Virus record (IMG/VR): IMGVR_UViG_3300016665_000824
Span: 32,001-96,000 of that record
Direction: 5' to 3' (one strand)
DNA length: 64,000 bases
Source of the DNA: a virus
Positions within the stretch are counted from its first letter, which is position 1; every line of letters begins with the position of its first letter. The position numbers and the translations under genes were made by a program. Positions 4,473 through 62,011 of this stretch are shown here, piece after piece. Below the pieces are notes generated by a model. That model was not told the origin of the DNA and made no database searches. It was given only the letters and a program-made list of their open reading frames with translations.

Positions 4473-4715
4473 TTAGGAAGCCTTGAGACCCTCCAATACG
4501 ATCTGAGATTCTTCGAGCATCTGACGATCGCCTGTTCGCTGGCAGATATAAAAATAGCTGTCAGCATCATAATCATATAAACGCCGCTTGATCGTATAAG
4601 ACTTATTGGCGTACAAAATCCTTGTTCCTAGTTGGTATTTGGGAATTCCAATCGCGTAGCTTGCACTTTTTGCTGTCATATTGTGTTCGTGGGGATATCG
4701 CCACAAATCTACCAC
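4473..4715 (-). CDS. Small hypothetical protein (GTG start, or ATG at 4679)
   Basis: 80-aa ORF; start overlaps CCACAAA operator-like element. Confidence 0.3.
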   Translation of the reverse strand: MVDLWRYPHEHNMTAKSASYAIGIPKYQLGTRILYANKSYTIKRRLYDYDADSYFYICQRTGDRQMLEESQIVLEGLKAS

Positions 4716-4718
4716 AAA
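4699..4718 (+). promoter_or_regulatory. Operator-like direct repeat CGCCACAAATCTACCACAAA
   Basis: Two CCACAAA half-sites 11 bp apart, ~68 nt upstream of 4788 ATG; 19/20 identical to 27933-27952. Confidence 0.5.
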
Positions 4719-4787
4719 AATAGGTTAAAATAATTTATTCGCCGCAGCGTTGTAGCGCTCGGCGTGTGAATCACCAACCATAACTTA

Positions 4788-5321: not shown

Positions 5322-5352
5322 GGTAACAAGGACTTGAGTCCTTGTTACCTTA
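5319..5352. terminator. Strong hairpin (15-bp stem, 4-nt loop) spanning the stop codons of two convergent genes
   Basis: TAAGGTAACAAGGAC-TTGA-GTCCTTGTTACCTTA; no flanking U-tract. Confidence 0.45.
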
Positions 5353-8300
5353 CTCCGCTAGTAACACCCGCTACTCGTCTCAAGACATTATTAAGCGTGT
5401 CATTAACAGCCTTCTGGACATCATTGCCCACACCCGCCGCAGAACTAATGTTGCTTTGAGTATTGATAGCGATCGGGGCATTAACCGTAATATTTCCACT
5501 TGTACCCAGAGCCGCACCCGTAGGATTGCCCTGTTGCTGAGGAACAAGATCTTTACCGCCAAGACTACCGAAAGCCTGCGCCAATGCCTCCGCTCTTTGA
5601 AGTTGTCCTTCGTCAAGCAAGGCGATCGGCTTGTCGAGTTTCTTCTGGGCTTCCTCAAATGCCTTGTCGTCGATCTTCAATGTCACGGGGTTCTCGGAGA
5701 TTTGCTTCGACACACGGTTAAATTCCGCTTCCAGTCCTGCGGTTAAATCTTTAACCTTGAGATCTGGGGCAACCAACACCTTGGAGAAGCCTTCATCGAT
5801 TTGCTGAGTTAACTTGTCGAACGAAGACGCGATCGCCTGTTCTGGCTTTGCTTCCTCCGTAGGTTTGCCACCGTACTTAGCGTTAAGCTCCTCAAACGAG
5901 TTGGCTTGAGCAGGATACTTCTTGTTAAGCTCCTCAAAGCTGCCTGCCATGCCCTTGTCGGGATATTTCTTGGCTAACTCCTCAAAGCTAGTAGCGAACG
6001 GTGCGTTATCAGGCTTTGGTTCGGGTGCAGCCGTAAATACTCCGCCCTGCTCAACCTGCCCAAGCAATGCCGAGGTGGGGTTCTTAAACGAAGCACCGCG
6101 AACATTAACAGGTTGGCTTGCCGCAGCCACAGCATTACTTACATCCGTGGTAGTCAATGCTGCTGTACCCGTATTTTGAGTTAAGCGAGCAAGCTGCTCT
6201 CGTTGTAGGCGCTCTTGCAGCGCAGGATCTCTAGTTGCGCCAATAACATCGCCGATCGCCGTATTAGTTTCGCCTTGCTGTTTATTGGCAAGAGCTTGAC
6301 GATCATTCTTGTTGACAATCTCGTTAACCTTGGCTTCGTCGGCAATGAAACCCTTTTCTTGCTGCAATCCACCCAATTCAAGAAAGTTCTTCTCCTGTCC
6401 AAGCTTGGCTTGAGCAAGTTTAAGCTTCGCCTCTTCGGACTGGGGACGTAGTTTAACCTCCAACTCGGCGGCTTTGATAGCAGCATCCTGTGAGGCAATG
6501 TCCACCTTCTTCTTGGCGATCGCGATTTCATTTTCGACCTTCTTGCGTTCAAGCAATAGGTCACGCTTCTGGATTTCCCGCTCCAAGGACTCGGCTTCAA
6601 ACTTTTGCTGTTGCTTGAGGGAATTAAGCTTAAGAACGGCAAGTTTTTCCGCAAGAATCAGCTTTTTCTCTTCGAGTTCGAGATCGGCAAAGTTGCCCTG
6701 ACCACCTGCGGCACGGATGGCAGCTTGTTGGCGATCGTAGATCTTGTTGAGAGCAGCAAACTCTGACTCGCGTAATGCCACTGTAGACTGGGCAAGTTTA
6801 TTTGCCGACTCGGATAGGCGGCTTTGATTCTCAAGCCCCTTTTCTAGTGCGGTGAATAATAGTTTTTGACGTTCAAGCTTGAGGTTTTGCTGCTCAATCG
6901 TGACCGCATACTTTTGTGATTCCAAGACTAGGCGATCGCGCACTGCGGAAACTAATCCTTCAATCGCCGCGAGTTCGGCTTCAGCGAGCTGTTTGGATAG
7001 TTCAGCAACCTTGATTAGATTAGCGTTCTTAGTTTCCTTGCTAACACCAACGCCCTTCTTCTCAAGATCGGCGATCGCCTTCTGCTTTTGTTGTTCGAGT
7101 TGCAGCTCTAAAGTGATACTGCGTTTACGTTCGGCAGTTTCTTGAAGCTTAATTTCAGATTCAAGCTTAATTCCCGACTTGCGGAGTTGAGCTATCTGAG
7201 CAAGACGCTGAGTCTCGCCAACCTTTTCGGCGGCAAGGGTCTCCTTAATCTGTGCATCCAATCCCTTAACAAAGCGCTCGGAACGGGCTTTGGCTATTTT
7301 TGCCTCAGCGTCCTTCCGTTTGTTGTCGGCATCCTCTTCTAATCGCGCTTTCTGGGCGGCGGTAGCCTTAACTAGATCAAGCTCTTTTTTGTTTGCGTCA
7401 GCAATAGAGTTTTTCGCCAAGTTTTGACGTTCGGCATCTGGCTTTGCGATTGAGGAAAGTTGATCCCTCTTTGTCTGCAACGTCCGAAGTTCAGACTCTT
7501 TCTTGGCGATCGCGTCCTGTTCCGCCTTGATCTGTGCGGTGTACTCCGAGGAATTAAAAAATGGCGCGTCTTTTACGGTGTTGAATCGCTGTAATGTCTC
7601 CGCATTCCCAGCTTTCAGACTAGACAAGGCTTTTTCCCCATCTTCAATCTGCTTCGTAATTCCCTCTAGCTGTCCCTGAGTATCCTCTGACAACTTTAAG
7701 GTGCTATCCAAGGTTCCTTTCTGGCTCTGGAGGCTATTAAGTCTTGATTGCAACACAGCAAGCTCGTCCGTTACTTTCTTAACGTCCTCGGCAGCGTTAT
7801 CTCCCGCAACACCCGTACTTATAGACTCTTGGAGAGCCTTCTTCCTTGCCTCTGCATCTTTGATCTGTTGACTGGTATCGTCGATCTTTCCTTGCAAGAC
7901 AGGAGCTTGAGCTTCCCTGACCTGCCGTATCTTTGAAGGATCTCCAGTTGCAGCAGCTAACTGCGCTTCCGCCAACTCGCGATCGCGCTTAATCTGTTGT
8001 TTCTGCTCATTAGCGTTGGTCTCCAAGATCTGCTGTCTTGCTCTTAGAGCCTTTTGATCGGCTTCAGACTGGGCTTGAATCTTCTTCTCCTCTAATTGTC
8101 CAGAGAGGGCGATCGATTCAGACTCAGAGATTCGCCCCGTGGCGAGCAAAGCTTGAATCTGGGAAAGTTGAGCGTCATAAATAGCTATGCGGCGATCCGC
8201 CTCCTTTTTGTACGCGGCAGTAATCGCTTCTTGAGCCTTTATCTGTAAATCGCGATCGGCAGAGACATTCGTAGCTACTTTTTGAAACGCTCCCGCAACT

Positions 8301-11300
8301 TCGTCTGCACGGAGAATCCCTGCATCTTGAAGGGCGTTAGCCGTTTCAAGCAACTCGCCCAACTTCGCCTTAAATAGCGCAGGATCTCCCGCAGACTTGT
8401 TTAAAGCGTCAAGGGCTGCATTATATTTTGAAGTTGCCTGCTCGATCGCATTACCAATACGAGGAAGATCAATAGCCTGAATTTGCAGGTTTACCGACTT
8501 GTAGGATTCTTGAAGTTTTCTAAGGGCTTCAAGTTCTCGATCTCTTTCTGCGTCTAAACCTTCTACAGCTTGAACCTGATTAATGATTGCCTCGATATTG
8601 TTGTTTCTTTCGGCGATCTCCTTCTTCTTATTCTCGATCTGAATATCAAAACGCGCAGCACCATCTTTGTCGCTTAGCGCTTCCGCCTTGGACTTTTCCT
8701 GCTCTAATTTAATTAAATCCTCTTGGAGTTTCTTCTGAGCAGACAGTCCTATTCCTAGATCAACCCGCCGAGAAGCTGACTGATTTAAGACGTTTTTATT
8801 ATCTTGCAATCTTATTTGGACGGCTTTCTCTTCAAGATTTCCTGCGCGATCGCCTAGACCTAACTTGTCGGAAGCGCCAAACGTTACCGTTCTTAGCCCC
8901 TCTCTTGCCGCGTCACCTGTAAGAGCAAAACCTTCTGTAACGCGAGTACCAATATTGTCTCTCTCTTTTTTAACCTTCTCCCTCAACGCGTCTTCGGAGT
9001 TGGTTGGTTTGCTTTGTAATCCCCTCAACTCTTTGAGTTTTGCGAGCTGTTGATCATACAGCTTTAAAGTGGGGTCATCTTGGAGGATGCTCTTGTCTTG
9101 GATTGAGGCAACATATTTTTCGCGTTCTGAGGTTAGGTTTGCTAGCTCAGAAGCGGCATCCTTTCCTTGCGATTTGTTTAGGATCGCAACCCTTGCGTCA
9201 CTATCTTTGAGCGCATCGTTGAGTTTGTCTACATTGGCTGTAGCTGCTTTTGTTTCCTGATCGACGTAGCCAACCAAGGTTGTTATTGCGGCGAAAGCTG
9301 CGCTTAACAATAATGTAGGACCAATTTCTGCGGCGAGGGCGGCGAAGGATTTGCTGATACCTTTGACATTCTCGGAAATAAACGAGGTAGCGCCTACAGC
9401 ACCCTTTTTGAGGTTTGAATAAAGTCCACCGACACTAACGTTCGCGTTTTGAGTGAAATCAGCAAAGCTAGACTTAGCTCGCGAGCCAAAATCTTTGACA
9501 CCAGAAAGAGCATCTTGGAAACCTGTCTTTAACCCAGCACCTAAATTTTTGAGGCTTAAATCGGGGAGAGAAATAGACTTGACTTGATTGACAAACTTAT
9601 CTATAGCGATACGAGAATTAGCCAAAGAAGCGGGAATATTTAGCTCTCTAAAGAACTTATCGAGTCCCAGTCTCGCGTTTGCAAGAGAGGTAGGGACGTT
9701 GATCTGGGAAAATGCTTTTTCAACCCCGTTGCGGAGGTTTACCAGCGAGGCAGGAATGTTGATATTTGCAAAGGCGTTCCGAATGCTAGCTTTAGTATTC
9801 TCAATTTGCGCGGGGAGATTTGCAAAGATACCAGTTTTTTGACTCGAATCCTGACTGAACCTTCCCTTAATGTCAGATATAAAACTACCAATAGAGTCGC
9901 CCAAGGACTTCAAAGAAGTTTTTGTCTTTGTGGCGATCGCTCCAATATCTTCTGCGAACTGTTTTGTGAACGGGACGGGAATTGGATTGGCAATAATCTG
10001 ACTTCGGAGCGACTTGATTCTGTCGGTAGTCTCCTGATAACTTTTAAGAGCCGCCGCACGAGCTTCGGGGGTTAACGACAGATCTGTAGAGTCTTTTTGG
10101 CTCACGATCGCCTGCTGTTTTAGTCCAGAGACCTCTCGTTTAGCGGCGACAACCTGAGTAGGATTTAGAGTCGTTGACTGAACTGGCTTGCCCCCAAGTA
10201 TTTCTCGAACACTATCGTTTAGCTTCTTGATGCGCCCAAAGGTTTCGCCAATACTGGCTCCAGCACCGCTAATTCCCGTGTTAATTGTCTTAAATACATT
10301 GGAGATTGTGCCACCAAACAGCTTGGTAACAGCGATCGCGATTAGCAATCCGCCAACTACTTTTTGAAAAGGATTGGAGTTCTCGCCAAAAGTAAAGAAC
10401 GGCAATATCGTGTCTGCAACCACCTTAATTACTGGTGCTAATACCGACCCTACCGTATCCGCAAACTTACGAATAGCTGCGGTTACATCCTGAATGATTT
10501 TTTGTAGACCTTTGTTCTTCAGGATTAACTGATCGAAGAAGACAAAACCAACAAATGTTCCAGCACCCAACAAGGCTGTTGATACGGCAAAAGACCTTGC
10601 CGCAGCTCCTGCCGCTTTTAATGAATTAGAGAAGATGCTGTTTACTTTCTCGGTATTTGTAGCGACATCGGCAAACTTGCCCAAGCTCTTGGCTGCGTCC
10701 GCAATCAACGGGCTAAACGAGCCAAATAGTTGGGACTTACCAACAATGCCTGAGAAAGCTGTTAAGGCGATCGGCGCTGCCTTCGTAAATCCTTGCAGTG
10801 CGGTTCCTAGCGCAGGAAATGCTTGAGTAAGTCCAATCAGTTTTACCCCAAAGCCACCTAGTGTTGGCAAAGCGGCAGTTATAACTCCCGCGAATGGCGA
10901 GAACGCACCGAGAACTTTGCCCAACTCTTTTTGGACTAAGCCAGCAGCACCAGGGATCTTGTTTAGATTCTCCGCCAACAACAGGAATCCAGCAGACCCT
11001 CGACCGACAACCGAACTTAAATTAGCAAAAGTGTTGACAACCCCGTTAGTACGCTTGTCAAGCAGGAAGAGAACTTCTCCCAAACCTGGTACAAGATTAA
11101 ACATCAACGAGAAGCCTTTGTTTAATGCCCCGATCGCGCCCGAAAGAACTTTTGCGCCGACGGAGATGCCGATCCAAATCCCTCCAAGAGGACCTACAAC
11201 ACCTGCAATTTGTTCAAACACATTAATAGCTGGCTGAACAACAGCAAGAGTAAGGCTCATCGCATCGGAAAAAGCCTTTACTGCGCCAGCGAGAGACTTG

Positions 11301-13780
11301 AATAGGTATTCTGGAACCTGCCCAAAGATCTGGAAGAATGGCCCCGCGAGACTTTTTAGGGTCGCAATCACGTTCTTGAATACGTCAAACAGTATTCCTG
11401 CGAGACTCCCTACTTGAGCAGCGATCGCGTCTTTATTCTTTGAGAAATACTGGTAAAACCCGTCAAGTTCCGCTACTAAAGGTGCGAGGAATTTCTCCCC
11501 AGCGAGTCTGCCGATCTCATCAACTAGCTCTTGAATATTGCTAACAATCCCACCCACGGACTGAGCAGCTAGCTTGTTTCCAGACTTAAATGCTTCTAAT
11601 CGACCTAAAAGCTCTTTGACGAAGGTTCCTTGAGACTTCCACTTAGCCACCATCTCATTGTTGAGGTTAAGCGATTTGGCAAGAGCTGAGTTTTGGTCAA
11701 TAGTTCCCGAAGTTATACTAACAACCTCTTGACGGGCTTGATATAAAGGTATGCCAAGCGTTCCGAGTGCGGCGGCGAACGAGGTTGTAATATTAGCAGC
11801 GTCATTCAAGGACGCGCCAATGTTGCTTGCCTGCCCAGCAACGATCTGAAAAACCCCGACAAGATCTTTACTGGTTACGCCGACCAGCTCTAACGAGTCT
11901 TTACGAATTTTATCGATCGCCCCTTCAACCGCAGGGCCAACCGCCTTGATCGCTTGAGTTGGATCTGATACGCGATCGCCATTAACTACGATTCTATTGG
12001 TTGCCGCTAAGCTCGCCTGAGTAGAGAGTAGTTGCTCTTGGAGCCTGATGTTTTGCCCAATCAACAGATCGAAAGGGCCGTTTTGTACAAATCCTTGGAG
12101 TGCCTGCAATCCCAATCCCAAGAAAGCAAGTCTCTGAGATACTTCAAAGATCGCGTTGGTTGCCTTGCCAGCACCTTCGCTAATTAGATTGAATACTTCT
12201 AGTGGTTCCGTCGCCCCCGCCACTGGAGCAACCACTGCGGCGGCAATATCTACAGGTTCTTGCAGCTTCGGGGCTATCTCTTGAGTCTTTTGAAACCCCT
12301 TAACGATAACATCATCAACACTATCGATGACAGTACCGACTTCGGCAAGGATTGTTGATCTCAGTCCATCAACAAAATTCTTACCTGCGATCGCGCCAGT
12401 ATCTTTTAAAAGCGAACTAAATGTTCCGCCAAAAAACTCGTCAATCTTGGTTGCAAGTTTTTGCAGTGAGCCATCCCCGCTTCCGATAGAATCAATCGCC
12501 GCGCCCAACCCTCCGTCAATAGCATCGACAGCTTTTAGGGCTAAATTCCTGAGAGGCGCAAGGATGCTAGTATCTTCTACGCTAAACAAGCTATTGAGAG
12601 CCTGTCCAACGCCTCCCTTTTGAGTCTCTATTAAAGGGCGGAGGATGGCAAAAGCGGATCTTAAATCCTCTGGAATTGCTTTTTCTAGTCCATTAAATAA
12701 CTGTCCAGACAACGCATTTCCAAAATCTTGCAACTCATTAGAGGCAACAATCGACCCCAAATTTGCCACCCCGATCTTGTTGGCAATCAGTTTTGCTAGT
12801 GGTGGTAGTGGCAACTTATCTACAAGCTGAGGGATTCGCCCCGCTAGGCGGTTGATCAGCTCAGATACAGAGCCGCCTAACTGTTCGTCAAGAATTTTAA
12901 ATTGATCGGTCGCCTCAGATCTGCTGCCGACGATTGCCCTGCCGACCGATCCTCCTAAAGCGCTAGATAAGCGCCCTACAACTCTTTGTCCGTCCTCAAC
13001 GTTTGGCGCGATTGCGTTAACGGCAAAAGCTTTAGCAGCACCCGATACCGACCCACCAGCCAACTGCTTCGACACTTCCGACAGCAATCCAGTTTTTGCC
13101 GCAGTCCGAAATGAGTTGGCGACAATTGAGGTTAAATCCGCCCCGAAAGCTTGGTTAACAATACCTTTTAAAGCGTCGGGGAGTCCTCCCCCAACAACGC
13201 CCGAAATGAGTGAGTCGGCGATCGCGTTATCTAGCGTTCCAGTAAAAGCCTCAACTCCCACTCCAAGCTTGCGCTGAATTTCTTGATTTAGCTTTGAAGC
13301 CCTAACATTTGCTTCTAACGCTTTACCGAAACTGTTTGCAGAATCGCTAAGTATCTGCGTAATTCTCTTGCCGTTATCCGAAAATATTGCAGACTGAGCT
13401 TGCTCTGCCGACTGCTTAGATAAGAATCCTCCTCCGACATCTTTTCCTGCAGAGGTAATCCCCTTGATTACCTTTGAGAGCGGAGCTAGTTTTGAAACTG
13501 CACTGTCGGCGACATTCGAGATCTGTTCTAAAAATATTTTGCCCGACTGCGTATCTAGTACATCTCGAACCGACTGAATTGCGTCTCTCAGCCCTCCAAA
13601 CGTGCCAATCGCGGTTGCCCCTACCGTGCTGATCGTTCCGCCAAGGGCTTGTACAGATCCCTTTGTTACGTCCGCAACAACACCAACACTTTTTAGACCA
13701 GCAGCTATCTCCGAAACTTGTTTGCTTGCTTGATCTTTCGCCTGTATTAAGATCTCAACAATATTGGTTTGCGGAGCCAT
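5345..13780 (-). CDS. Giant virion protein, tape-measure-like (tail length tape measure or ejection/internal virion protein)
   Basis: Uninterrupted 2811-aa ORF; Gly/Ala/Ser-rich hydrophobic N-terminal third, long E/K/Q/A/L-rich coiled-coil centre, internal tandem repeats, position between head and tail-fiber genes. Confidence 0.6.
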   Translation of the reverse strand: MAPQTNIVEILIQAKDQASKQVSEIAAGLKSVGVVADVTKGSVQALGGTISTVGATAIGTFGGLRDAIQSVRDVLDTQSGKIFLEQISNVADSAVSKLAPLSKVIKGITSAGKDVGGGFLSKQSAEQAQSAIFSDNGKRITQILSDSANSFGKALEANVRASKLNQEIQRKLGVGVEAFTGTLDNAIADSLISGVVGGGLPDALKGIVNQAFGADLTSIVANSFRTAAKTGLLSEVSKQLAGGSVSGAAKAFAVNAIAPNVEDGQRVVGRLSSALGGSVGRAIVGSRSEATDQFKILDEQLGGSVSELINRLAGRIPQLVDKLPLPPLAKLIANKIGVANLGSIVASNELQDFGNALSGQLFNGLEKAIPEDLRSAFAILRPLIETQKGGVGQALNSLFSVEDTSILAPLRNLALKAVDAIDGGLGAAIDSIGSGDGSLQKLATKIDEFFGGTFSSLLKDTGAIAGKNFVDGLRSTILAEVGTVIDSVDDVIVKGFQKTQEIAPKLQEPVDIAAAVVAPVAGATEPLEVFNLISEGAGKATNAIFEVSQRLAFLGLGLQALQGFVQNGPFDLLIGQNIRLQEQLLSTQASLAATNRIVVNGDRVSDPTQAIKAVGPAVEGAIDKIRKDSLELVGVTSKDLVGVFQIVAGQASNIGASLNDAANITTSFAAALGTLGIPLYQARQEVVSITSGTIDQNSALAKSLNLNNEMVAKWKSQGTFVKELLGRLEAFKSGNKLAAQSVGGIVSNIQELVDEIGRLAGEKFLAPLVAELDGFYQYFSKNKDAIAAQVGSLAGILFDVFKNVIATLKSLAGPFFQIFGQVPEYLFKSLAGAVKAFSDAMSLTLAVVQPAINVFEQIAGVVGPLGGIWIGISVGAKVLSGAIGALNKGFSLMFNLVPGLGEVLFLLDKRTNGVVNTFANLSSVVGRGSAGFLLLAENLNKIPGAAGLVQKELGKVLGAFSPFAGVITAALPTLGGFGVKLIGLTQAFPALGTALQGFTKAAPIALTAFSGIVGKSQLFGSFSPLIADAAKSLGKFADVATNTEKVNSIFSNSLKAAGAAARSFAVSTALLGAGTFVGFVFFDQLILKNKGLQKIIQDVTAAIRKFADTVGSVLAPVIKVVADTILPFFTFGENSNPFQKVVGGLLIAIAVTKLFGGTISNVFKTINTGISGAGASIGETFGRIKKLNDSVREILGGKPVQSTTLNPTQVVAAKREVSGLKQQAIVSQKDSTDLSLTPEARAAALKSYQETTDRIKSLRSQIIANPIPVPFTKQFAEDIGAIATKTKTSLKSLGDSIGSFISDIKGRFSQDSSQKTGIFANLPAQIENTKASIRNAFANINIPASLVNLRNGVEKAFSQINVPTSLANARLGLDKFFRELNIPASLANSRIAIDKFVNQVKSISLPDLSLKNLGAGLKTGFQDALSGVKDFGSRAKSSFADFTQNANVSVGGLYSNLKKGAVGATSFISENVKGISKSFAALAAEIGPTLLLSAAFAAITTLVGYVDQETKAATANVDKLNDALKDSDARVAILNKSQGKDAASELANLTSEREKYVASIQDKSILQDDPTLKLYDQQLAKLKELRGLQSKPTNSEDALREKVKKERDNIGTRVTEGFALTGDAAREGLRTVTFGASDKLGLGDRAGNLEEKAVQIRLQDNKNVLNQSASRRVDLGIGLSAQKKLQEDLIKLEQEKSKAEALSDKDGAARFDIQIENKKKEIAERNNNIEAIINQVQAVEGLDAERDRELEALRKLQESYKSVNLQIQAIDLPRIGNAIEQATSKYNAALDALNKSAGDPALFKAKLGELLETANALQDAGILRADEVAGAFQKVATNVSADRDLQIKAQEAITAAYKKEADRRIAIYDAQLSQIQALLATGRISESESIALSGQLEEKKIQAQSEADQKALRARQQILETNANEQKQQIKRDRELAEAQLAAATGDPSKIRQVREAQAPVLQGKIDDTSQQIKDAEARKKALQESISTGVAGDNAAEDVKKVTDELAVLQSRLNSLQSQKGTLDSTLKLSEDTQGQLEGITKQIEDGEKALSSLKAGNAETLQRFNTVKDAPFFNSSEYTAQIKAEQDAIAKKESELRTLQTKRDQLSSIAKPDAERQNLAKNSIADANKKELDLVKATAAQKARLEEDADNKRKDAEAKIAKARSERFVKGLDAQIKETLAAEKVGETQRLAQIAQLRKSGIKLESEIKLQETAERKRSITLELQLEQQKQKAIADLEKKGVGVSKETKNANLIKVAELSKQLAEAELAAIEGLVSAVRDRLVLESQKYAVTIEQQNLKLERQKLLFTALEKGLENQSRLSESANKLAQSTVALRESEFAALNKIYDRQQAAIRAAGGQGNFADLELEEKKLILAEKLAVLKLNSLKQQQKFEAESLEREIQKRDLLLERKKVENEIAIAKKKVDIASQDAAIKAAELEVKLRPQSEEAKLKLAQAKLGQEKNFLELGGLQQEKGFIADEAKVNEIVNKNDRQALANKQQGETNTAIGDVIGATRDPALQERLQREQLARLTQNTGTAALTTTDVSNAVAAASQPVNVRGASFKNPTSALLGQVEQGGVFTAAPEPKPDNAPFATSFEELAKKYPDKGMAGSFEELNKKYPAQANSFEELNAKYGGKPTEEAKPEQAIASSFDKLTQQIDEGFSKVLVAPDLKVKDLTAGLEAEFNRVSKQISENPVTLKIDDKAFEEAQKKLDKPIALLDEGQLQRAEALAQAFGSLGGKDLVPQQQGNPTGAALGTSGNITVNAPIAINTQSNISSAAGVGNDVQKAVNDTLNNVLRRVAGVTSGVR
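5872..6000 (-). repeat. Three imperfect tandem ~42-48-bp repeats near the 3' end of the giant ORF
   Basis: Encodes SFEELAKKYP / SFEELNKKYP / SFEELNAKYG. Confidence 0.65.
9581..9820 (-). repeat. Four tandem 60-bp (20-aa) repeats inside the giant ORF
   Basis: Encodes NIPASLVNLRNGVEKAFSQI / NVPTSLANARLGLDKFFREL / NIPASLANSRIAIDKFVNQV / NLPAQIENTKASIRNAFANI. Confidence 0.7.
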
Positions 13781-27932: not shown

Positions 27933-27952
27933 CGCCACAAATCCACCACAAA
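27933..27952 (+). promoter_or_regulatory. Operator-like direct repeat CGCCACAAATCCACCACAAA
   Basis: Same element ~38 nt upstream of 27991 ATG. Confidence 0.5.
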
Positions 27953-27990
27953 GCCACGTTTCAATGCGAAAATCCGAGTAGAGTTACCAG

Positions 27991-28784: not shown

Positions 28785-28812
28785 TTCCGATCTGAATCAC
28801 CACGAAGAAATC

Positions 28813-30869: not shown

Positions 30870-31595
30870 TTAATCAAAGAATTTTCTAACCGCCGCTTCT
30901 ACATCCTTGTTTGGCATCGGGTAGCACCAAATCGGCATCATCCGACCATTGCAAATCCTTTCTTCTTGTTTGCCAAGAGCCTCGCAAGTAGCTTTGACAA
31001 ATTTTCCTAATGTGGTGCGGTTTTTAGCTGTTACGGGCAAACTCAAAGATTCAGCAATTTCTACGGCTCCCATCCACTTTGTCTCCGAGGCTGGAGCGAT
31101 CGCCTTGATAACAGCCATTGCGTCGTTGATCGCAACATCTACAAGCATTTGACATAAGCGAGGGTCGGAATCAGCAAGCATATCCTTGATCTCAAAGACT
31201 GACTTCGCTGTTTCGAGTGCTATTACACGAGAGGGCAATGCGGGAACAGGAGTGGGGGTAGTAGGCACTGATTGTAACAATGCCTTCGCCTTAGAGAAGG
31301 CTTCAACCAGATCGAGCTTGCTCTGAACAACGGCTACCGTGTTTCGGCTCAGGGTCATTAAAGCGGTCGCTTGGTCTTCGTTGAGTAGCGCAAATTTAGG
31401 AGGGTTCCCTGTCGCCTTTTCGGGGACTCCGATTTTAAATCGGATACCCGCGAACCTTGCTTCAATCATGTCTTGGTACTTCTTGATGTTCCGCATAAAG
31501 CTCTCGTGATCAATCCCAAGTCGCTCGGCAATCAGTCGAGAGTCAACAAGCAATTCGCCATCTTCATTGATGATTGGTACAATACTTTCGGACAT
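30870..31595 (-). CDS. Rha-family phage regulatory protein
   Basis: 241 aa; N-terminal LLVDSRLIAERLGIDHESFMRNIKKY matches Rha domain pattern. Confidence 0.6.
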   Translation of the reverse strand: MSESIVPIINEDGELLVDSRLIAERLGIDHESFMRNIKKYQDMIEARFAGIRFKIGVPEKATGNPPKFALLNEDQATALMTLSRNTVAVVQSKLDLVEAFSKAKALLQSVPTTPTPVPALPSRVIALETAKSVFEIKDMLADSDPRLCQMLVDVAINDAMAVIKAIAPASETKWMGAVEIAESLSLPVTAKNRTTLGKFVKATCEALGKQEERICNGRMMPIWCYPMPNKDVEAAVRKFFD

Positions 31596-31678: not shown

Positions 31679-31697
31679 CTTGTGGCGATTTTGTGGG
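31679..31697 (-). promoter_or_regulatory. Operator-like CCACAAA-N4-CCACAAG dyad, inverted orientation
   Basis: Reverse complement reads CCCACAAAATCGCCACAAG; between Rha gene start and 31727 ATG. Confidence 0.4.
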
Positions 31698-36953: not shown

Positions 36954-37039
36954 GATTTAGATCTGAATACGTTGTCCGATAATAAGCGATCGCCAATTCA
37001 GCTTCATTTAAAATCTCCGAAGGCGCGATCGCTAAGATT

Positions 37040-43307: not shown

Positions 43308-43328
43308 TTAGGTGATTCAGATCGGAAT

Positions 43329-44736: not shown

Positions 44737-45247
44737 AAATATTTAGGTTTGACTGATATCGAAAAATCACGCCGAAGGGGATATCGACTATCCATGCAGG
44801 TGACTGCTCATACTGCGTCCTTATGGGCTGTCTTGGTACAGGGGTAATATCCCGTCCGTCCCATTCGACTCCTAAGAAGTTTTTGCTGGGGATTTTAAAT
44901 CTGTTGTACTTCGCGATCGCGTGAGAGATGAACGCCAGTTCGACAGGAACTTTTTGTTTGTATTCAGTCTCGTTGGCATATCCTTTGATCGCCAAAACCT
45001 CAATCCTTTGCATTCGATAAGCCCTGTTTGGGCTGTCGGGACGCTCAGAATCTTTGCCGTGGTCGCCAATTGAAGCTATGCCGACGGTCTCGCCTTCGAT
45101 CACGTTGTAGTAATCCCCACTAGTGTCTAAGTGCAGCTCACTGATAATGTGTGCGACAAAGTGATTTATCGACTCGGTTATAAGCCCTTTGTAATAGTCT
45201 TCAAAGTTCATCGTGGCGATCGCAAAATATTGCCTTGATATTACCAC
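44717..45247 (-). CDS. Hypothetical protein
   Basis: 176-aa ORF. Confidence 0.4.
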   Translation of the reverse strand: MVISRQYFAIATMNFEDYYKGLITESINHFVAHIISELHLDTSGDYYNVIEGETVGIASIGDHGKDSERPDSPNRAYRMQRIEVLAIKGYANETEYKQKVPVELAFISHAIAKYNRFKIPSKNFLGVEWDGRDITPVPRQPIRTQYEQSPAWIVDIPFGVIFRYQSNLNIYGEFVE

Positions 45248-45262
45248 AGAAATGCGTTATGG

Positions 45263-45805
45263 TTGTTATGCGATCGCCAAGTCTCAATTGGCAGGAAGAA
45301 TGTCACTGGCGACAAACATAAGGATACGCGGCGAGATACTGGCGATCATCTTAAAAGAAATCGTAAAAACCACATGAAAGAACTTGAAAACAATAAAGAT
45401 CTTGAATCTTTTCTAAAAGAGCTGCGAGAGCAGGCGGTTGCGGGTGACTTTGGTGTGGATGCTCTGCTTAACGAAGTAAGGAAAGCCGCAAAAAAGTGTG
45501 AAGAATTTAGGAATACAGAGTCTAGTCAGCCCAAGGATATTGAGTTTATTCAAGCTCTAATGCGATTTGCCGCTAACCAGCCCAGTCTTGCATTTCTAAC
45601 CCCTTATTTTGGCAAACAAAAATCAGAAGAAGAAGTTCAGGCTATTTTTAAATCGTTGCTGCTTAGGGAGTTAGGAGAACTCAAACTCTCTGCTAATCAC
45701 CACAAAGCCAGTATTCAGTTCTATCAATATGAACTAAAAAGGAACGAGAGATATCGAGCAGACATAGAAGAAGCGATCTCCAGAAATTATCCAAACCTAA
45801 AATAA
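45263..45805 (+). CDS. Hypothetical protein (plus-strand insert; start may be ATG ~45376)
   Basis: 180-aa ORF followed by small membrane protein. Confidence 0.4.
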   Translation: MLCDRQVSIGRKNVTGDKHKDTRRDTGDHLKRNRKNHMKELENNKDLESFLKELREQAVAGDFGVDALLNEVRKAAKKCEEFRNTESSQPKDIEFIQALMRFAANQPSLAFLTPYFGKQKSEEEVQAIFKSLLLRELGELKLSANHHKASIQFYQYELKRNERYRADIEEAISRNYPNLK

Positions 45806-48351: not shown

Positions 48352-48630
48352 TTGGTGATTACGCAACAACTACGGGGGCTAGAAAGCTTCCTGTCGGAAC
48401 TATGCCCGTCACACGGATCTGGAATTGAATTAACTTCGATAGGCGATCGCGTCGTTAAAATTGCGTGTCAATACGAGGGTCACGCAAGAATTATTAGTGA
48501 TCTGCTAAAGCTGCAAAAAAACATAGCCAAGCTCGAAGGGCTTGGCTATGAAAAAGCAATAATTGTCTTTGCCAGCGCGACAAAGAAAGAAGTTATCTTG
48601 ACCGTAGAGACCTGTGACTATCTTCCCTGA
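48352..48630 (+). CDS. Small hypothetical protein
   Basis: 92-aa ORF. Confidence 0.3.
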   Translation: MVITQQLRGLESFLSELCPSHGSGIELTSIGDRVVKIACQYEGHARIISDLLKLQKNIAKLEGLGYEKAIIVFASATKKEVILTVETCDYLP

Positions 48631-49471
48631 TTGGCTCAAAGCCTAGTGGCGTTGCTAGCAGCTCCGCCACTGAATAGGGATCTCCATTCTCTTTCTTAAG
48701 GACTTCGAGCTTTGCTAGTTGCTTAACAATGCTCCTGATTTGTCCTAGATAAGAGCTTTCAGAGATTTTGTTTATGATCAGTTCTAGCTCCATCCTCACA
48801 AAGTTTTGTCCATCTTCGTTCATCTGATCGACTAGCGATCGCAGAACCCCGTCTTGAGTTATTCCTCTTAACGTCATTTGCTCTCTAACGTACTTACTCA
48901 GCAAGTCAGAGATGGTTGTCTCGGATTCCATGCGGTTTTCTTTTGTAGGTATTGTCTTCGACTCTATAGCCTCGACCTTCTTCCGCGAGTCGGCGGAAGG
49001 CGCTTTACTGGCAACTATTAGCGGGATCTCCTTCCTTATCCACGCATTTTTGGGTAGTTTGCCATCATCATTCGTGTCTAAATAATCAAAAACGTTGTAA
49101 TCCGAATCCACACTTCCCGTCATACAGAAGAGGAGGAATAATTTAGTCCAAGCTTCGTTCACTTTCGAGTCAGAATATCTTTGTTCTATTTCAAATCCGC
49201 GAGCCATCTCAGTAAGCTCCCCCCGCAGCCTTTCCTGAGCGGAAAATCTGTCCTTAGCTGTCAAGTTTGTGCCGTCTAGTTTGAGCAGATAGATAATAAA
49301 CTGCTGCATGTAATTACCAAACTCCGCTTGGCTCATTACCATTACATCTTTACGATAGCGCGAGAACCATCTTGAAAATGCCTTAGATCGAATTTTTGTT
49401 CTAGGGTCGTCCTTCCCCTTCTTGAGACTGCCTTGCTTTTCTTTGTCTTTCACCATAGTTGCCGAAGGCAT
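48593..49471 (-). CDS. Hypothetical protein with basic N-terminus
   Basis: ATG at 49471 (MPSATM) preferred over TTG at 49495; divergent from plus-strand genes. Confidence 0.45.
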   Translation of the reverse strand: MPSATMVKDKEKQGSLKKGKDDPRTKIRSKAFSRWFSRYRKDVMVMSQAEFGNYMQQFIIYLLKLDGTNLTAKDRFSAQERLRGELTEMARGFEIEQRYSDSKVNEAWTKLFLLFCMTGSVDSDYNVFDYLDTNDDGKLPKNAWIRKEIPLIVASKAPSADSRKKVEAIESKTIPTKENRMESETTISDLLSKYVREQMTLRGITQDGVLRSLVDQMNEDGQNFVRMELELIINKISESSYLGQIRSIVKQLAKLEVLKKENGDPYSVAELLATPLGFEPIREDSHRSLRSR

Positions 49472-49487
49472 AATTTTCCTCTTGTTT

Positions 49488-49498
49488 TGCCACAAAAT
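49488..49498 (+). promoter_or_regulatory. TGCCACAAAAT half-site motif
   Basis: One of three exact copies of the 11-mer (49488, 49613, reverse at 61932). Confidence 0.4.
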
Positions 49499-49522
49499 TA
49501 AAACATTTTTACGTTATATATG

Positions 49523-49573
49523 GTATCCTTATGAGGTGTCCATATATTGGATCAAATCCTAGTATAAGGATAC
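49523..49573. promoter_or_regulatory. Nested palindromes in divergent intergenic region (candidate operator)
   Basis: GTATCCTTAT...ATAAGGATAC 10-bp inverted repeat around TCCATATATTGGA and GGATCAAATCC palindromes. Confidence 0.4.
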
Positions 49574-49595
49574 ACCAAAAAACGGAAAAACGAGT

Positions 49596-50051
49596 ATGTC
49601 TAACTCTAGTTCTGCCACAAAATTGGCGATCGCAAGATTAAAAGGATCTGACCTGCCTATTTTTGTTCCAGTTTCAGTCTCTGAGAAAGTCGCAACCCTA
49701 GTCAGGGAGTGTATTTTACAGTCCGACAGTTTAAAGATATTAAAAGTTACTACTACAGTTTACAACGAGCTTACTAAGCATTTAAAGCAGTACGAAAAGC
49801 CAAAATATACCATTCCTCAGTATCTTTTGATGCTCCTATATACGGTTTCTACTACTTCAGAATTGATCGAAAAACACAACAAGGGTTTAATTTCAGATGA
49901 CGAGTTTATTAACTGTATCAAAAACAACAAAAACGCAAACGGGACTAAAACCTCCCGCAAAATGGGTCGGAAGAAAGCAAGCGTTGATGCCAGCGATCGC
50001 GCAGTACTTCCCCGCGAGGTTCACAAAAGAACCAGTTCCAAGGTTTCTTGA
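49596..50051 (+). CDS. Hypothetical protein; 3' end overlaps methyltransferase start
   Basis: 151-aa ORF; ~155-nt overlap with next gene in another frame. Confidence 0.35.
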   Translation: MSNSSSATKLAIARLKGSDLPIFVPVSVSEKVATLVRECILQSDSLKILKVTTTVYNELTKHLKQYEKPKYTIPQYLLMLLYTVSTTSELIEKHNKGLISDDEFINCIKNNKNANGTKTSRKMGRKKASVDASDRAVLPREVHKRTSSKVS

Positions 50052-50814: not shown

Positions 50815-51418
50815 AAAAAGCCAGTCGCGGGACTGGCTACAGGTAAAACAACAAAAGACAACTAAGCGGAAATCAACATATACCGAGCATTTGTGGAGAA
50901 CAGCTCAGGCACTTATGGATATTAGCACAGAATTAAAACAAATCACTGTGAGATCGATGCGAGGAGGCAGCTTTTCGTTCGGTCCTCACGATATTCGAGT
51001 CGATCGCGGGTCGATCTTAGGCAATCCCTACGAGATGGCGAAAGATGAATCCAATCGCGATCGCGTATGCCTTGCCTACAAGCACTGGCTATTTGCAAAT
51101 ATTCGGTACTGGCTGGACATGAAAGAAAAAGGCATTGCAAAGGCTCTCTGGTGGCATATCGATCCAAAGAGCATAGCGATCGCCTCGGATTTAAGAATTG
51201 CTCCGTCGTGGAAGCAGTTCACTGTTGCTCAGGTGGAGAGTGAATTTACTCGCCTCTGCTATGAAGCAACCCAGCACGATATCAACCTCATTTGCTGGTG
51301 CTTTCCAAAAGCTTGCCATGCGGATGTACTGCGAGCAGCCTTGATCTGGTACTACGAGGAGCATTACTTAAAGGAGTGCTCACGGATTGAAACGACTATT
51401 AAAGAATTTTTTAGGTAA
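50768..51418 (+). CDS. DUF4326-like small protein (real start probably ~50908-50956)
   Basis: GSILGNPY and LICWCFPKACHADVL motifs recalled from DUF4326-type proteins; N-terminal part of track ORF spans a hairpin. Confidence 0.4.
   Translation: MQPSVNGLESCYFINKKSQSRDWLQVKQQKTTKRKSTYTEHLWRTAQALMDISTELKQITVRSMRGGSFSFGPHDIRVDRGSILGNPYEMAKDESNRDRVCLAYKHWLFANIRYWLDMKEKGIAKALWWHIDPKSIAIASDLRIAPSWKQFTVAQVESEFTRLCYEATQHDINLICWCFPKACHADVLRAALIWYYEEHYLKECSRIETTIKEFFR
50819..50838 (-). terminator. Terminator-like hairpin oriented for the minus strand
   Basis: AGCCAGTC-GCGG-GACTGGCT preceded by A7 on plus strand (U7 after hairpin on minus); directly after Dam stop. Confidence 0.35.
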
Positions 51419-52437: not shown

Positions 52438-52703
52438 TGCGAAAAATAGACAAGGACTACAGTTTTACAGAACGAGAGATTCAGGCGTTAATGTTGATAT
52501 GCACTATTGGACGAGAAGACTGGCTCACTAAAGAGGTGAAGGAGATATTGTCGCAATACATAAGCAGAAAGATGTATCACAGGACTGCTTCTCAAGTCTT
52601 TGCTCACAGAAAAAGAGTTCTGGGTTCTTTCCCTAGCAATGCGGGTAAATACTTACTTGAAAGGCGAACTAGCTTTATTGAGCGATCGCGGAGGAGTGAG
52701 TAA
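52437..52703 (+). CDS. Small hypothetical protein
   Basis: 88 aa; stop lies in bidirectional terminator. Confidence 0.4.
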   Translation: MRKIDKDYSFTEREIQALMLICTIGREDWLTKEVKEILSQYISRKMYHRTASQVFAHRKRVLGSFPSNAGKYLLERRTSFIERSRRSE

Positions 52704-52753
52704 AAATATAAAAAGACGATCCGACGTGAGATCGGATCGTCTTTTTATATTTT
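52703..52753. terminator. Bidirectional intrinsic terminator
   Basis: 22-bp stem AAAATATAAAAAGACGATCCGA / TCGGATCGTCTTTTTATATTTT between convergent small-gene array and primase. Confidence 0.65.
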
Positions 52754-52874: not shown

Positions 52875-54632
52875 CTAGCTAGCGATCGCCATTAATTTAG
52901 TCAACCCAGCCTTCCGCAACATCTCTTGCTGGAGCTTGGTTTGAAAATATGGCTTATCCTCAGCACTTGCTACTCGATACAGTTCCAGCCAGTATTTCTC
53001 CCGCTTCTCGCAGTGTATATGCTGAATCTTGGCGATCGCACGGTCAACCACTGCCTTGACATCGCCAGCGATCGCCTCTTGCATTGCGTAAGGTATGTCC
53101 GAAAAGTCATCGTTCAGGAATTTATCCCACAGCGCACAGTGATCGTCATGGGCAAATTCGATCTCTTGAAGCAGGATATACCCCCGCAAATCGGGATGAT
53201 GGACAAAGGCTTTTAGTATCTGCATTTCGGCTAGTTGCAGAGCAGTATAACTGGGTTTTGCGGCAACCTGTGGTGATTCAGATCGGAATACCGATCGCGC
53301 AAGTCGATGTAAATCCTCCTCAATGCGTACGGCAAGGCGAGCATTTCCCTGAGCTAACTTCTGAGCACACTTATGGGTATAGTGGCTACGTCGGGCATCC
53401 ATCGGCAATGGGGCGAGTATTTGCGCGATCGCTTGATTAGCTCGCTGGAAGTCGGCAGAATTGTTAAGGTCTTTGCCCTTAATCTCAAGGTCAATTAACC
53501 AGTCAAGGTATAGCGGCGCTTCGCGGAGCAGCGATAAGTACGCTTCAGAACCATAAGTGGTTAGGTACTCGTCGGCATCTTTTTTGCCCTCAATGGTTAG
53601 TATCCGTAGATTTACCGTACCATCCAGAACTAGCTCTAGGACTTGACTTACGGCTTTTTTAGTTGCCGTAACACCTGCTTTGTCCGAGTCGAAGTTGCAA
53701 ACTATACGCTTCGACTCAGTATGGCGTAAAACCTGTTTAATTTGAGCGGCGCTAAGCGCTGTGCCCATTGAGCCGACTGCATGGGTAATTCCATTTTGGT
53801 GCAGGGAAATCACGTCGAGGTGTCCTTCGACAATTACCGCCTCGTCGTTCTTGGCGATCGCCTCACAAGCTTTGTCTAGTCCAAACAGTAGTTCACCCTT
53901 TTTGAACAACTCGGTTTCGGGCGAGTTGATATACTTTGCGCCGTCGTCCTCACCGCTTAGCGATCGCGCAGAAAATCCAACCACGCGACCACGGATATCG
54001 GCGATCGGGATAATCAGGCGATCGCGAAATCGGTCATAGTAGCCTTCGTTTTCTTTGCGAGGTATCGCCAACCCCAATTCTTCAAGAGTTTGAACGGGGA
54101 TATTTAACTCGGCAAGGTTACTCCACCCCGCAGGCGCGTAACCGAGCTTGAACTTATTGCAGGTATCTCTGGTGATTTTGCGTTTTTCTAAGTAGGCAAG
54201 GGCTTTGGTGTTGAGCTGTTGCTGGTAGTAACGAGTGACTTTAGCTATTTGATCGAAGAGGTATTCCCTGTGCGATCGCTCCTTAACGATTTGCTCGGCA
54301 TGTTCTGGCTCTTCGGTTCTTACTTCAACCCCGTAACGACCAGCCAAATCTAGTACGGCATCTGGGAACGATTTATGACCAATCTCCATCATAAACTTGA
54401 TCGCACCACCCGACGCACCGCAGTTATGGCAGTAATACATGCCTTTGCTGGGGTCTACCGAGAGGGCGCTGGGATTCGTGCCGTTGTGAAATGGGCAAGC
54501 GCCACGAAATGAGTGACCCGACCGCTTAAGTACGACGTTTTCGCTAACGACATCAACGATGTCGGCTTTGTCGTTTACTGCGGCGATCGTATCAGCATGG
54601 ATTCGGAATGATTTAGGTTTGGCGGATTGCAT
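52875..54632 (-). CDS. dnaG: DNA primase, DnaG-type
   Basis: N-terminal CHC2 zinc finger (CPFHNGTNPSALSV...YYCHNCGASGG), central polymerase region, TOPRIM-like EGHLDVISL and DSDKAG. Confidence 0.85.
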   Translation of the reverse strand: MQSAKPKSFRIHADTIAAVNDKADIVDVVSENVVLKRSGHSFRGACPFHNGTNPSALSVDPSKGMYYCHNCGASGGAIKFMMEIGHKSFPDAVLDLAGRYGVEVRTEEPEHAEQIVKERSHREYLFDQIAKVTRYYQQQLNTKALAYLEKRKITRDTCNKFKLGYAPAGWSNLAELNIPVQTLEELGLAIPRKENEGYYDRFRDRLIIPIADIRGRVVGFSARSLSGEDDGAKYINSPETELFKKGELLFGLDKACEAIAKNDEAVIVEGHLDVISLHQNGITHAVGSMGTALSAAQIKQVLRHTESKRIVCNFDSDKAGVTATKKAVSQVLELVLDGTVNLRILTIEGKKDADEYLTTYGSEAYLSLLREAPLYLDWLIDLEIKGKDLNNSADFQRANQAIAQILAPLPMDARRSHYTHKCAQKLAQGNARLAVRIEEDLHRLARSVFRSESPQVAAKPSYTALQLAEMQILKAFVHHPDLRGYILLQEIEFAHDDHCALWDKFLNDDFSDIPYAMQEAIAGDVKAVVDRAIAKIQHIHCEKREKYWLELYRVASAEDKPYFQTKLQQEMLRKAGLTKLMAIAS

Positions 54633-55674: not shown

Positions 55675-55882
55675 TGTCTCCGTATGTTCTGGGGAATTTT
55701 GCTTCGCCTTTGTAGAAGCAGTTGTGTGTCAGGATTGGATCTCTTGTCAGCTCGTAATGAGAGTAATCCCAATCGTATTTCTTAGCCATTTTTATACATC
55801 TTTCTTCGCTTGACGCGCTGTGAGTTGTATAAAACTCCTGTTCTTCGTCGTCGTCATTCTGTGGCAAAATCTCGTTAGCCAT
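55661..55882 (-). CDS. Small acidic hypothetical protein
   Basis: 73-aa first gene of leftward early operon. Confidence 0.4.
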   Translation of the reverse strand: MANEILPQNDDDEEQEFYTTHSASSEERCIKMAKKYDWDYSHYELTRDPILTHNCFYKGEAKFPRTYGDNDSE

Positions 55883-56027
55883 TAGACCTCTCAGATAGGT
55901 TTGTTTGGTTAGAGGTGATTGCTTGTTGAGAGCAGGCGATCGCCTCGATAGAAATATTATTGCAGAAGTATTGCCAAAACGTCAACTATTGTTTTACACT
56001 TAGAGCATATTAATTCGGTGTAGCGAT

Positions 56028-56261
56028 ATGACTAGTTCTACTTTTGTTGTTGAAGTACCTGTAGAGGTCGGAGACCTACCCCAAAAAATATGGGAGGCTC
56101 GGAGACTTTGCCGACGCAATCATGTTGATTTGTGTAGGGATGCTGGCATAACCCGACAATATTGGACACAAATTGAGAAGGGGCAACGCAAATCAATCCC
56201 TTTACACACACTAAGAAAAATAGAAAAAGCTTTAGGCGTTGATTTTGGTATTCAGGCTTAG
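56028..56261 (+). CDS. XRE-family helix-turn-helix transcriptional regulator (Cro/CI-like)
   Basis: 77 aa; LCRDAGITRQYWTQIEKGQRKSIPLHTLRKIEKALGV HTH pattern; heads rightward operon. Confidence 0.75.
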   Translation: MTSSTFVVEVPVEVGDLPQKIWEARRLCRRNHVDLCRDAGITRQYWTQIEKGQRKSIPLHTLRKIEKALGVDFGIQA

Positions 56262-60983: not shown

Positions 60984-61559
60984 AAAAACACACAAAATTA
61001 CAACAAAACTATGCAAGAAGAAATCTCACAACAGGAAATCGCTGCGATCGCAGCCGCAAAACTGAAAAGAATGCAGCGATCGCAACAACAAGAGCCGATA
61101 ACGAAGGTCGAGCCAAAAACTCCAAGTCCCGCACCAGCAAAACAGTCAAAATCAGCAACAAACAGCTACTGGAACAAACCTCAAAGCAGCATCGACATCG
61201 TGAAAAACCCCAAGCACGTTGCCGATATTTACACCATGACCCCGTGGATACCCCAGCCACAGGTAGATGATATCTGCGCGATCGCCGAAAGACCCTACGG
61301 CGACTGGATAGACCTCGAAGCGCAGCATATCGAAGGCAAGTGGGATAGGCAAAGATTCATTGAGTCAGCCTATAACTGGCCTTTCCGCGCCAAGATGCGA
61401 TGTGTTGAAATTTCTGAGGACGGACTGATGGCAACAGTATCCGTCTCAGGAGTCCGCAAACGATTACCACTAGTGTGTTTATGGGAGATGAATGAAATAG
61501 TTGACACTATGACTAATAGTGAGTATGATGAATCTTGGTTTCAGGTAAGACAATTATGA
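60978..61559 (+). CDS. Hypothetical protein
   Basis: 193-aa ORF; 3' end contains consensus promoter for next gene. Confidence 0.5.
   Translation: MGKNTQNYNKTMQEEISQQEIAAIAAAKLKRMQRSQQQEPITKVEPKTPSPAPAKQSKSATNSYWNKPQSSIDIVKNPKHVADIYTMTPWIPQPQVDDICAIAERPYGDWIDLEAQHIEGKWDRQRFIESAYNWPFRAKMRCVEISEDGLMATVSVSGVRKRLPLVCLWEMNEIVDTMTNSEYDESWFQVRQL
61501..61529 (+). promoter_or_regulatory. Sigma70-type promoter, consensus TTGACA-17-TATGAT (copy 1)
   Basis: TTGACA 61501-61506, 17-nt spacer, TATGAT 61524-61529; ATG at 61556. Confidence 0.6.
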
Positions 61560-61870: not shown

Positions 61871-61957
61871 CTCCAGCAACTAAAGCAAGATTCACAAATA
61901 GGCGATCGCCTTCTCTGCCTCGTTTTTTAACATTTTGTGGCAGTTAAAAGAAAATGT

Positions 61958-61986
61958 TTGACAGTATGCCTAGTAGTGTGTATGAT
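61958..61986 (+). promoter_or_regulatory. Sigma70-type promoter, consensus TTGACA-17-TATGAT (copy 2)
   Basis: TTGACA 61958-61963, 17-nt spacer, TATGAT 61981-61986; ATG at 62012; ~65 bp similar to copy 1. Confidence 0.6.
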
Positions 61987-62011
61987 GGTATTTAGTTTCA
62001 GGTAAAACAAT

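Follow-up and report, generated by a model that had tools for sequence, protein, structure and literature searches.

Pho boxes, which are recognized by members of the PhoB/OmpR family, consist of two 7-bp direct repeats in an 11-bp register that replace the −35 element, and the CII sites of phage lambda (TTGC-N6-TTGC) straddle the −35 of pRE, pI, and paQ. To our knowledge, the transcriptional control of freshwater siphovirus-like cyanophages remains almost entirely uncharacterized. In the 64,000-nucleotide stretch of viral DNA analysed here (hereafter, the window), a tandem element, CCACAAA-N4-CCACAAA, presents an organization similar to that of pho boxes, i.e., 7-bp repeats that are 4 bp apart and located directly upstream of a −10-like hexamer, with no recognisable −35. 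This element also resembles the lambda CII sites in being a phage-specific direct repeat, on one helix face, at putative promoters without a usable −35, and in serving a limited set of phage genes, one of which encodes a regulator. The same heptamer is contained in an 11-mer, TGCCACAAAAT, which is present in the window as single rather than tandem copies, and the core sequence CCACAAA, as judged from its distribution and its retention in relatives, looks like a genuine gene-control motif and a real cis element.

The window belongs to an uncultured, HIP1-rich cyanophage of a lineage without a cultured member; this assignment is based on the abundance of HIP1 together with the phage genes, the lack of a nucleotide match, and a portal with only distant relatives. 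The phage gene set includes genes encoding a major head protein, a head protease, a portal, a tail-fibre-like protein, a DnaG-type primase, a DnaB helicase, a replication-initiator/DnaD-like protein, and a Dam-class methyltransferase, as well as two regulators, a Rha-family protein and a small Cro/CI-type HTH protein. The window lies within a 134-kb metagenomic contig. A nucleotide search of the region against phage and plasmid collections gave no match, and the portal shares only ~30% identity with its counterparts in the cyanosiphoviruses S-CBS4, CL131, and PaV-LD. The HIP1 octamer GCGATCGC occurs 139 times in 64 kb (~1 per 460 bp) against ~1.3 copies expected; this density, unusually high for a virus, implies that the phage has long been adapting to a HIP1-rich cyanobacterial host, or to the methylation system of such a host, and the phage has both Dam-class and C5 methyltransferases. 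A 2811-aa ORF (5345–13780, − strand) at the end of the structural module had no Pfam match and may encode a giant tail or tape-measure-like protein. In addition, a perfect 22-bp inverted repeat (52703–52753) is located between converging gene blocks.

The initial annotation of the window had reported three exact copies of TGCCACAAAAT, and exactly three are present:

49488–49498, + strand: copy 1, in the 124-nt divergent spacer between a 292-aa gene (ATG 49471, leftward) and a 151-aa gene (ATG 49596, rightward)
49613–49623, + strand: copy 2, codons 6–9 (S-A-T-K-L) of the 151-aa ORF, 14 nt past its ATG
61932–61942, − strand: copy 3, read as ATTTTGTGGCA on the + strand, upstream of the −35 of a promoter designated P2 and centred near −57

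Dinucleotide shuffles yielded 0.04 expected copies for TGCCACAAAAT as a pre-specified word. This word was picked post hoc, however, and a total of 73 different non-HIP1 11-mers (strand-collapsed) presented at least three occurrences in the window, as compared to means of 21, 35, and 58 in Markov simulations of order 1, 3, and 5, respectively. Because many such 11-mers recur, threefold exact repetition carries no statistical weight, and the annotation's argument that three exact 11-mers are not expected by chance fails. That the three copies agree at all 11 positions is partly a coincidence, superimposed on a conserved core of 7–9 nt. The earlier reading of the 11-mer is partly supported, its observation being correct and its statistical reasoning wrong. 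Nothing relevant was found in the literature on CCACAAA or TTTGTGG in connection with cyanobacteria.

Evidence for a gene-control motif comes from an unbiased comparison of intergenic and coding k-mers across the window and 7 kb of its source contig (71 kb in all). In this comparison, CCACAAA/TTTGTGG was the top intergenic-enriched non-HIP1 heptamer, with 11 of 24 copies being intergenic against 7.4% expected (p = 3.7e-7); among the other 34 A4C3 permutations, i.e., heptamers of matched composition, 27 of 408 copies (6.6%) were intergenic. Across 260 kb of related loci, which are partly redundant, 41 of 94 core copies were intergenic against 8.9%. Part of this enrichment comes from duplicated cassettes (A/B, P1/P2, and 64366/65107), whose sites are not independent. 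The longer pattern TGCCACARAWT, which was derived post hoc, was found at five sites in 71 kb (0.16 expected), all of which are either intergenic or ≤17 nt from a start codon. Sites of the motif are found in both orientations relative to genes, as expected of a DNA-binding rather than an RNA-level signal. HIP1 is also strongly over-represented in the window, and one GCGATCGC directly follows copy 2; however, HIP1 is spread in coding DNA at roughly its genome-wide rate, whereas the CCACAAA core is concentrated intergenically, and the 11-mer contains no HIP1 sequence. The initial annotation had noted that the 11-mer shares its core with the direct-repeat element, and both do contain CCACAAA. Its further suggestion that these words represent half-sites for the same regulator divides into two parts: a common regulator is reasonable, since the core is concentrated at intergenic and 5′-end positions and is retained phylogenetically at copy 1 and at other sites, but half-sites are unsupported, the position that a second repeat would occupy beside copy 1 being unconserved.

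Homologues of the 292-aa protein (53–82% identity) gave access to ten related loci representing six further lineages. Copy 1 is separated by 16 nt from the leftward ATG (49471) and sits 20 nt upstream of an invariant hexamer, TATGGT (49519–49524). The 13-nt sequence TTGCCACAAAATT, which includes copy 1, is exactly conserved in four further lineages (L003/4, L005/6, L007/8, and L009), with flanks that vary; the corresponding block in L001/2 is TTGCCATAAAAGT (CCATAAA), and the block is missing from L010, the most distant relative. Copy 1 has a mean pairwise identity of 0.84, which ranks it 35th of 240 windows, and the spacer has 0.74; on this alignment, copy 1 is a discrete conserved footprint between variable flanks. 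Within copy 2, CCACAA is invariant in seven lineages, down to the synonymous third bases of the GCC and ACA codons, although this synonymous conservation is weakly significant (9 of 34 codons have invariant third positions; roughly p = 0.07), and the last four bases (AAAT) vary in relatives with the choice of Lys/Arg and Leu codons. Copies 1 and 2 have the same orientation and are 125 bp apart (~12 helical turns), a distance of 123–126 bp in relatives; no gal-like second site was found near the other strong sites at up to two mismatches. The initial description of these copies as flanking divergent promoters reflects the gene arrangement, as no consensus promoter is present in 49472–49595 and copy 2 is coding sequence.

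The spacer between these divergent genes also contains other conserved sequences:

49507–49578: blocks TTTTACGTTnTATATGGTATCCTTAT, CCATATAT, and TAAGGATACAC, with nested inverted repeats, all better conserved than the 11-mer

The nested inverted repeats (ATATATGG/CCATATAT and GTATCCTTAT/ATAAGGATAC) are kept in all relatives and exceed the 11-mer in conservation, as do the blocks neighbouring copy 1, TATATGGTATCCTTAT and TAAGGATACAC, from which nested inverted repeats are formed. Folding of the control-region alignment gave invariant hairpins only, with one compensatory pair (RNA fold z = −2.66), and no Rfam match was found in the window, the sole hit in 49380–49720 being a chance hairpin (E = 0.33). 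These inverted repeats could serve a dimeric repressor as operators or could form a hairpin in a leader. The 151-aa gene is followed by the Dam methylase gene in a rightward operon, and a strong intrinsic terminator (48522–48550, − strand) is located directly 3′ of the 292-aa gene, which makes the latter a monocistronic unit. Neither the 292-aa nor the 151-aa protein matched Pfam, PHROG, NCBIfam, or PDB entries, and structure prediction for the 292-aa protein (seven sequences) gave an unusable model (pLDDT 40).

Copy 3 is associated with a strong promoter:

61958–61986, + strand: promoter P2, TTGACA-17-TATGAT, with a paralogue, P1, at 61501–61529

The initial annotation placed this copy 16 nt upstream of a consensus −35, which is right within one base; the gap to TTGACA (61958–61963) is 15 nt, and the promoter matches the sigma70 consensus at 11 of 12 positions. 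P2 is part of a duplicated cassette (61495–61554 and 61952–62011) that comprises TTGACA-17-TATGAT and the leader TTTCAGGTAAxACAAT-ATG. The P1 cassette lies within the 3′-terminal part of the preceding ORF. It is shared by four relatives (L011–L014), in which it is conserved, and three of these four present TTTGTGGGA inside that ORF, 16 nt upstream of TTGACA. Homology between P1 and P2 begins exactly at TTTGTGG, which reads TTTATGG in the P1 of the window itself. No orthologue of P2 was found in L011–L014, and copy 3 is without an orthologue in the available relatives; as read from these alignments, it forms the 5′ edge of a second, lineage-specific version of the older P1 cassette that arose by duplication. 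A perfect 8-bp inverted repeat, AACATTTT-N14-AAAATGTT (61929–61958), shares sequence with copy 3, directly adjoins the −35 of P2, and represents an alternative operator candidate.

A search for CCACAAA-N4-CCACAAA with no more than one mismatch identified three tandem sites (A, B, and C), to which a weaker family member (D) can be added:

4701–4718, + strand: site A, CCACAAAtctaCCACAAA, followed after 7 nt by TAAAAT (4726–4731), with no −35
27935–27952, + strand: site B, CCACAAAtccaCCACAAA, followed after 7 nt by TTCAAT (27960–27965)
31679–31696, − strand: site C, CCACAAAatcgCCACAAG, followed after 7 nt by TATAAT (31671–31666)
45244–45263, + strand: weak member D, CCACAGA, followed after 7 nt by TATGGT

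At all four sites, the proximal repeat is followed, at a distance of exactly 7 nt, by a hexamer of the form T(A/T)NNNT, and the same was true for nine of ten tandem instances when relatives were included; a tandem in L003 (1253–1270), which ends 3 nt before an ATG, does not fit this geometry. No −35-like hexamer was found at the tandem sites except TTGATA (45235–45240), which is located at site D in place of the distal repeat. Each tandem site points to a gene oriented against the adjacent structural operon, one of these genes (30870–31595, − strand; downstream of site C) encoding the Rha-like regulator. Orthologous tandem sites keep the repeats and the 7-nt geometry, while spacers and flanks change; for example, site C orthologues present 7 nt and then TACAAT (L016) or TAAATT (L019). 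Site B is retained with changed spacers in L016/17, L018, and L019, where TTCAGT or TTCGGT follows (L016, L018, and L019), and has relocated by ~1.1 kb in L018/L019. The segment with site A, a variable cassette, is missing from L021/L022; the cassettes of sites A and B are both mobile or variable. Sites A, B, and C thus show the two 7-bp direct repeats in a 10–11-bp register that are typical of PhoB/OmpR-type sites, and none of the three 11-mer copies does, all being single. A scan of genome contigs for the tandem pattern gave taxonomically random matches (one cyanobacterium among ~80 matches listed) and was uninformative with regard to a host factor.

Further single sites were found at the 5′ ends of other genes:

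55856–55866, − strand: one-mismatch copy TGCCACAGAAT, 13 nt past the ATG (55882) of a 73-aa leftward gene
L015 16744–16754, − strand: near-copy TGCCACAAATT, just beyond the window (the 65956 site), 26 nt upstream of a 212-aa gene
50890–50896, − strand: intergenic copy of the core, read as TTTGTGG on the + strand, 18 nt from the downstream ATG (50915) of a DUF4326 gene

The 55856 site lies beside a second divergent control region, close to an HTH gene (56028–56261). L003 keeps ATGgctaaccagattTTGCCACAAGAT at this site, as ATG-N13-TGCCACAAGAT, though the downstream protein differs. The 55856 site and copy 2 are located 13 and 14 nt past their respective ATGs and hence in different reading frames, which argues against a shared peptide; together with the retention in L003 before a different protein, this suggests constraint at the nucleotide rather than the peptide level. 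The second divergent control region itself (55883–56027), between the 73-aa leftward gene and the 77-aa Cro/CI-type HTH gene, contains promoter-like elements on both strands (TTGACG-18-AATAAT, − strand, and TTGCCA-18-TACACT, + strand) and, from its sequence, looks like an early genetic switch. At the 65956 site, TGCCACAAATT is conserved in L011 and L013 inside a block of ~45 nt, and the 212-aa gene precedes a C5-methyltransferase gene. Kinship between the 151-aa and 212-aa proteins, both of which are encoded in front of DNA methyltransferase genes, was considered and rejected, as the two are not homologous. The 50890 core is conserved in L001, and L007/8 have TTTTTGTGGC 7 nt before the ATG. 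By eye and in both orientations, the single sites presented no common distance to a −10 or −35 hexamer.

A second intergenic-enriched word, GATCTGAAT or the palindrome TTCAGATCTGAA, was also observed; 7 of its 12 copies are intergenic, mostly 0–25 nt upstream of start codons and in sense orientation:

Window: 2938–2949, 28789–28797, 36960–36968, 43311–43328, and 53272–53289
L015: 15141–15153 and 15886–15894

An 18-mer, GGTGATTCAGATCGGAAT, is present three times. This element may represent a translation-initiation or terminator-like cassette, and in two places a CCACAAAA word directly follows it.

We propose, with about even confidence, that this cyanophage lineage has a specific cis-regulatory motif, (Y)GCCACAAA(W), whose single-site form is matched best by the 11-mer; this motif would be the putative binding site of one regulator and would be used in two architectures. 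Positions, enrichment, conservation, and geometry are observed, and what we infer from these is the binding of a protein, its activating or repressing effect, any cooperation of copy 1 with copy 2, and the promoter geometries at all sites. The putative sequence-specific DNA-binding regulator, probably phage-encoded, would read GCCACAAA. At tandem pairs, with their 11-bp register, the bound protein would recruit host RNA polymerase, in a class-II activation like that by PhoB or lambda CII, and the tandem form thus most plausibly marks activator-dependent promoters; these would drive accessory genes in partly variable cassettes against the structural operons, as well as the Rha-like gene. The single form fits operators or auxiliary sites better than promoter elements, because it shows no common distance to promoter hexamers and occurs in both orientations, and single TGCCACARAWT sites would accordingly represent operators of early or middle transcription units, at whose 5′ ends they are located. 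Occupancy of copy 1 could repress leftward and favour rightward expression, since this copy is 16 nt from the leftward ATG and centred ~−38 relative to the rightward TATGGT. Copy 2 would be a weaker auxiliary site just inside the ORF, ~12 helical turns from copy 1, and cooperation between the two over this distance is possible, although the other sites lend it no support. Copy 3 would represent an upstream element (~−57) of a duplicated strong early promoter. A more elaborate version of this scheme, which we consider unlikely as a whole, has one phage regulator acting through three architectures, i.e., −35-replacing tandem promoters on partly mobile cassettes of accessory genes, single operators in early control regions, and sites 13–14 nt inside unrelated genes and in differing frames, with promoter, leader, and first codons forming portable modules that would persist when the gene behind them is exchanged, as observed in L003, and with copies 1 and 2 forming a looped switch between the regulator-like 292-aa gene and the Dam-methylase operon.

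The three copies may alternatively not represent a functional set at all; in that case copy 1 would be part of a conserved control region with the nearby palindromes as its true operators, copy 2 would simply reflect Ser-Ala-Thr-Lys-Leu codons, copy 3 would have hitch-hiked on a duplication, and the identity of the copies would be coincidental. This explanation is unlikely but remains substantial, as it accommodates the 73 recurrent non-HIP1 11-mers (against 21–58 simulated), the variation of the last four bases of copy 2 in all relatives, the restriction of copy 3 to this genome, where the overlapping AACATTTT-N14-AAAATGTT could be the true operator, and the palindromic blocks at 49515–49578, which are more conserved than copy 1. 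It does not, however, account for a core enrichment that is specific and survives composition matching, for copy 1 being a discrete footprint amid variable flanks, for the location of all five TGCCACARAWT sites at gene 5′ ends, or for the 55856 site being kept in L003 before a different ORF. A signal at the RNA level, with the C/A-rich sense word acting as an unstructured, downstream-box-like translation enhancer or as the target of a T4 RegA-type repressor, would explain why sense copies lie 13–14 nt past an ATG (copy 2 and the 55856 site) or 3–10 nt before one (L015 15156, L015 18376, and the L003 1253–1270 tandem), and why the offset from the ATG is fixed in relatives. We regard this signal as improbable, as copy 1, copy 3, and the 65956 and 50890 sites are antisense to the nearest downstream gene, the tandem sites are fixed relative to −10-like hexamers and not to start codons, and neither an Rfam family match nor covariation was found.

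Slightly less probable again is that CCACAAA represents a −35-type element for an alternative sigma factor, either a host group 2/3 or a phage-encoded one, with no separate activator. The distal tandem repeat is indeed 18 nt from the −10-like hexamer, i.e., in −35 position, and site D has a TTGATA −35 in the place of the distal repeat, but this leaves the proximal repeat, 7 nt from the −10, without a role; moreover, single sites lack a fixed −10 spacing, the orientation of copy 3 and of the 65956 site is opposite to that of their genes, and no sigma-factor gene was found among the ORFs scanned. A sigma54-type reading (TGGCA-N-TTGC) was rejected, as there is no −12 element. It is very improbable that the sites are DnaA-box-like (TTWTNCACA) or iterons of a phage replication initiator. 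Copy 1 reads TTTGCCACA, an 8/9 match to TTATCCACA, and direct repeats phased by 11 bp resemble iterons, with a replication module nearby; the part that is conserved, however, is CCACAAA(A) and not TTWT, the other copies match at 6–7 of 9 positions, so that copy 1 is the only copy to reach 8/9 and no DnaA boxes with a conserved TTWT were found, and the sites are scattered in pairs over >60 kb rather than clustered at one origin. The dispersal of the sites and the conservation of a part other than that of the DnaA box leave this reading poorly supported.

As a putative transcription-control motif of a phage, the element is an ordinary sort of feature, found here in a lineage that is unstudied; it is not surprising and poses no challenge to the way in which phage gene regulation is currently understood. 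With its two architectures and its several conserved instances, such a defined motif is nevertheless a concrete starting point and may be used for mapping early, middle, and late regulons, for finding the regulator, and for annotating related metagenomic contigs.

Among the described systems, pho boxes differ from the tandem sites in sequence, as these are unrelated to CTGTCAT, and in the gap to the −10 (7 nt here versus ~10); in addition, no response-regulator (winged-helix) gene was found among the ORFs scanned. Lambda CII sites differ in repeat unit, in period (11 bp here versus 10), and in position, and no CII homologue was detected. The MotA boxes of T4 middle promoters are similar to the elements described here in that a phage-specific word occupies the −35 place before a sigma70-type −10; however, a MotA box consists of one 9-bp word with its centre at −30, and no MotA or AsiA homologues were seen here. 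Copies 1 and 2 resemble the operators OE and OI of the gal operon, through which repression by DNA looping is exerted, in being identical, in flanking a control region with one copy in the first ORF, and in lying ~12 turns apart; unlike the gal operators, which are palindromic and bind dimers, the words here are asymmetric and in direct orientation.
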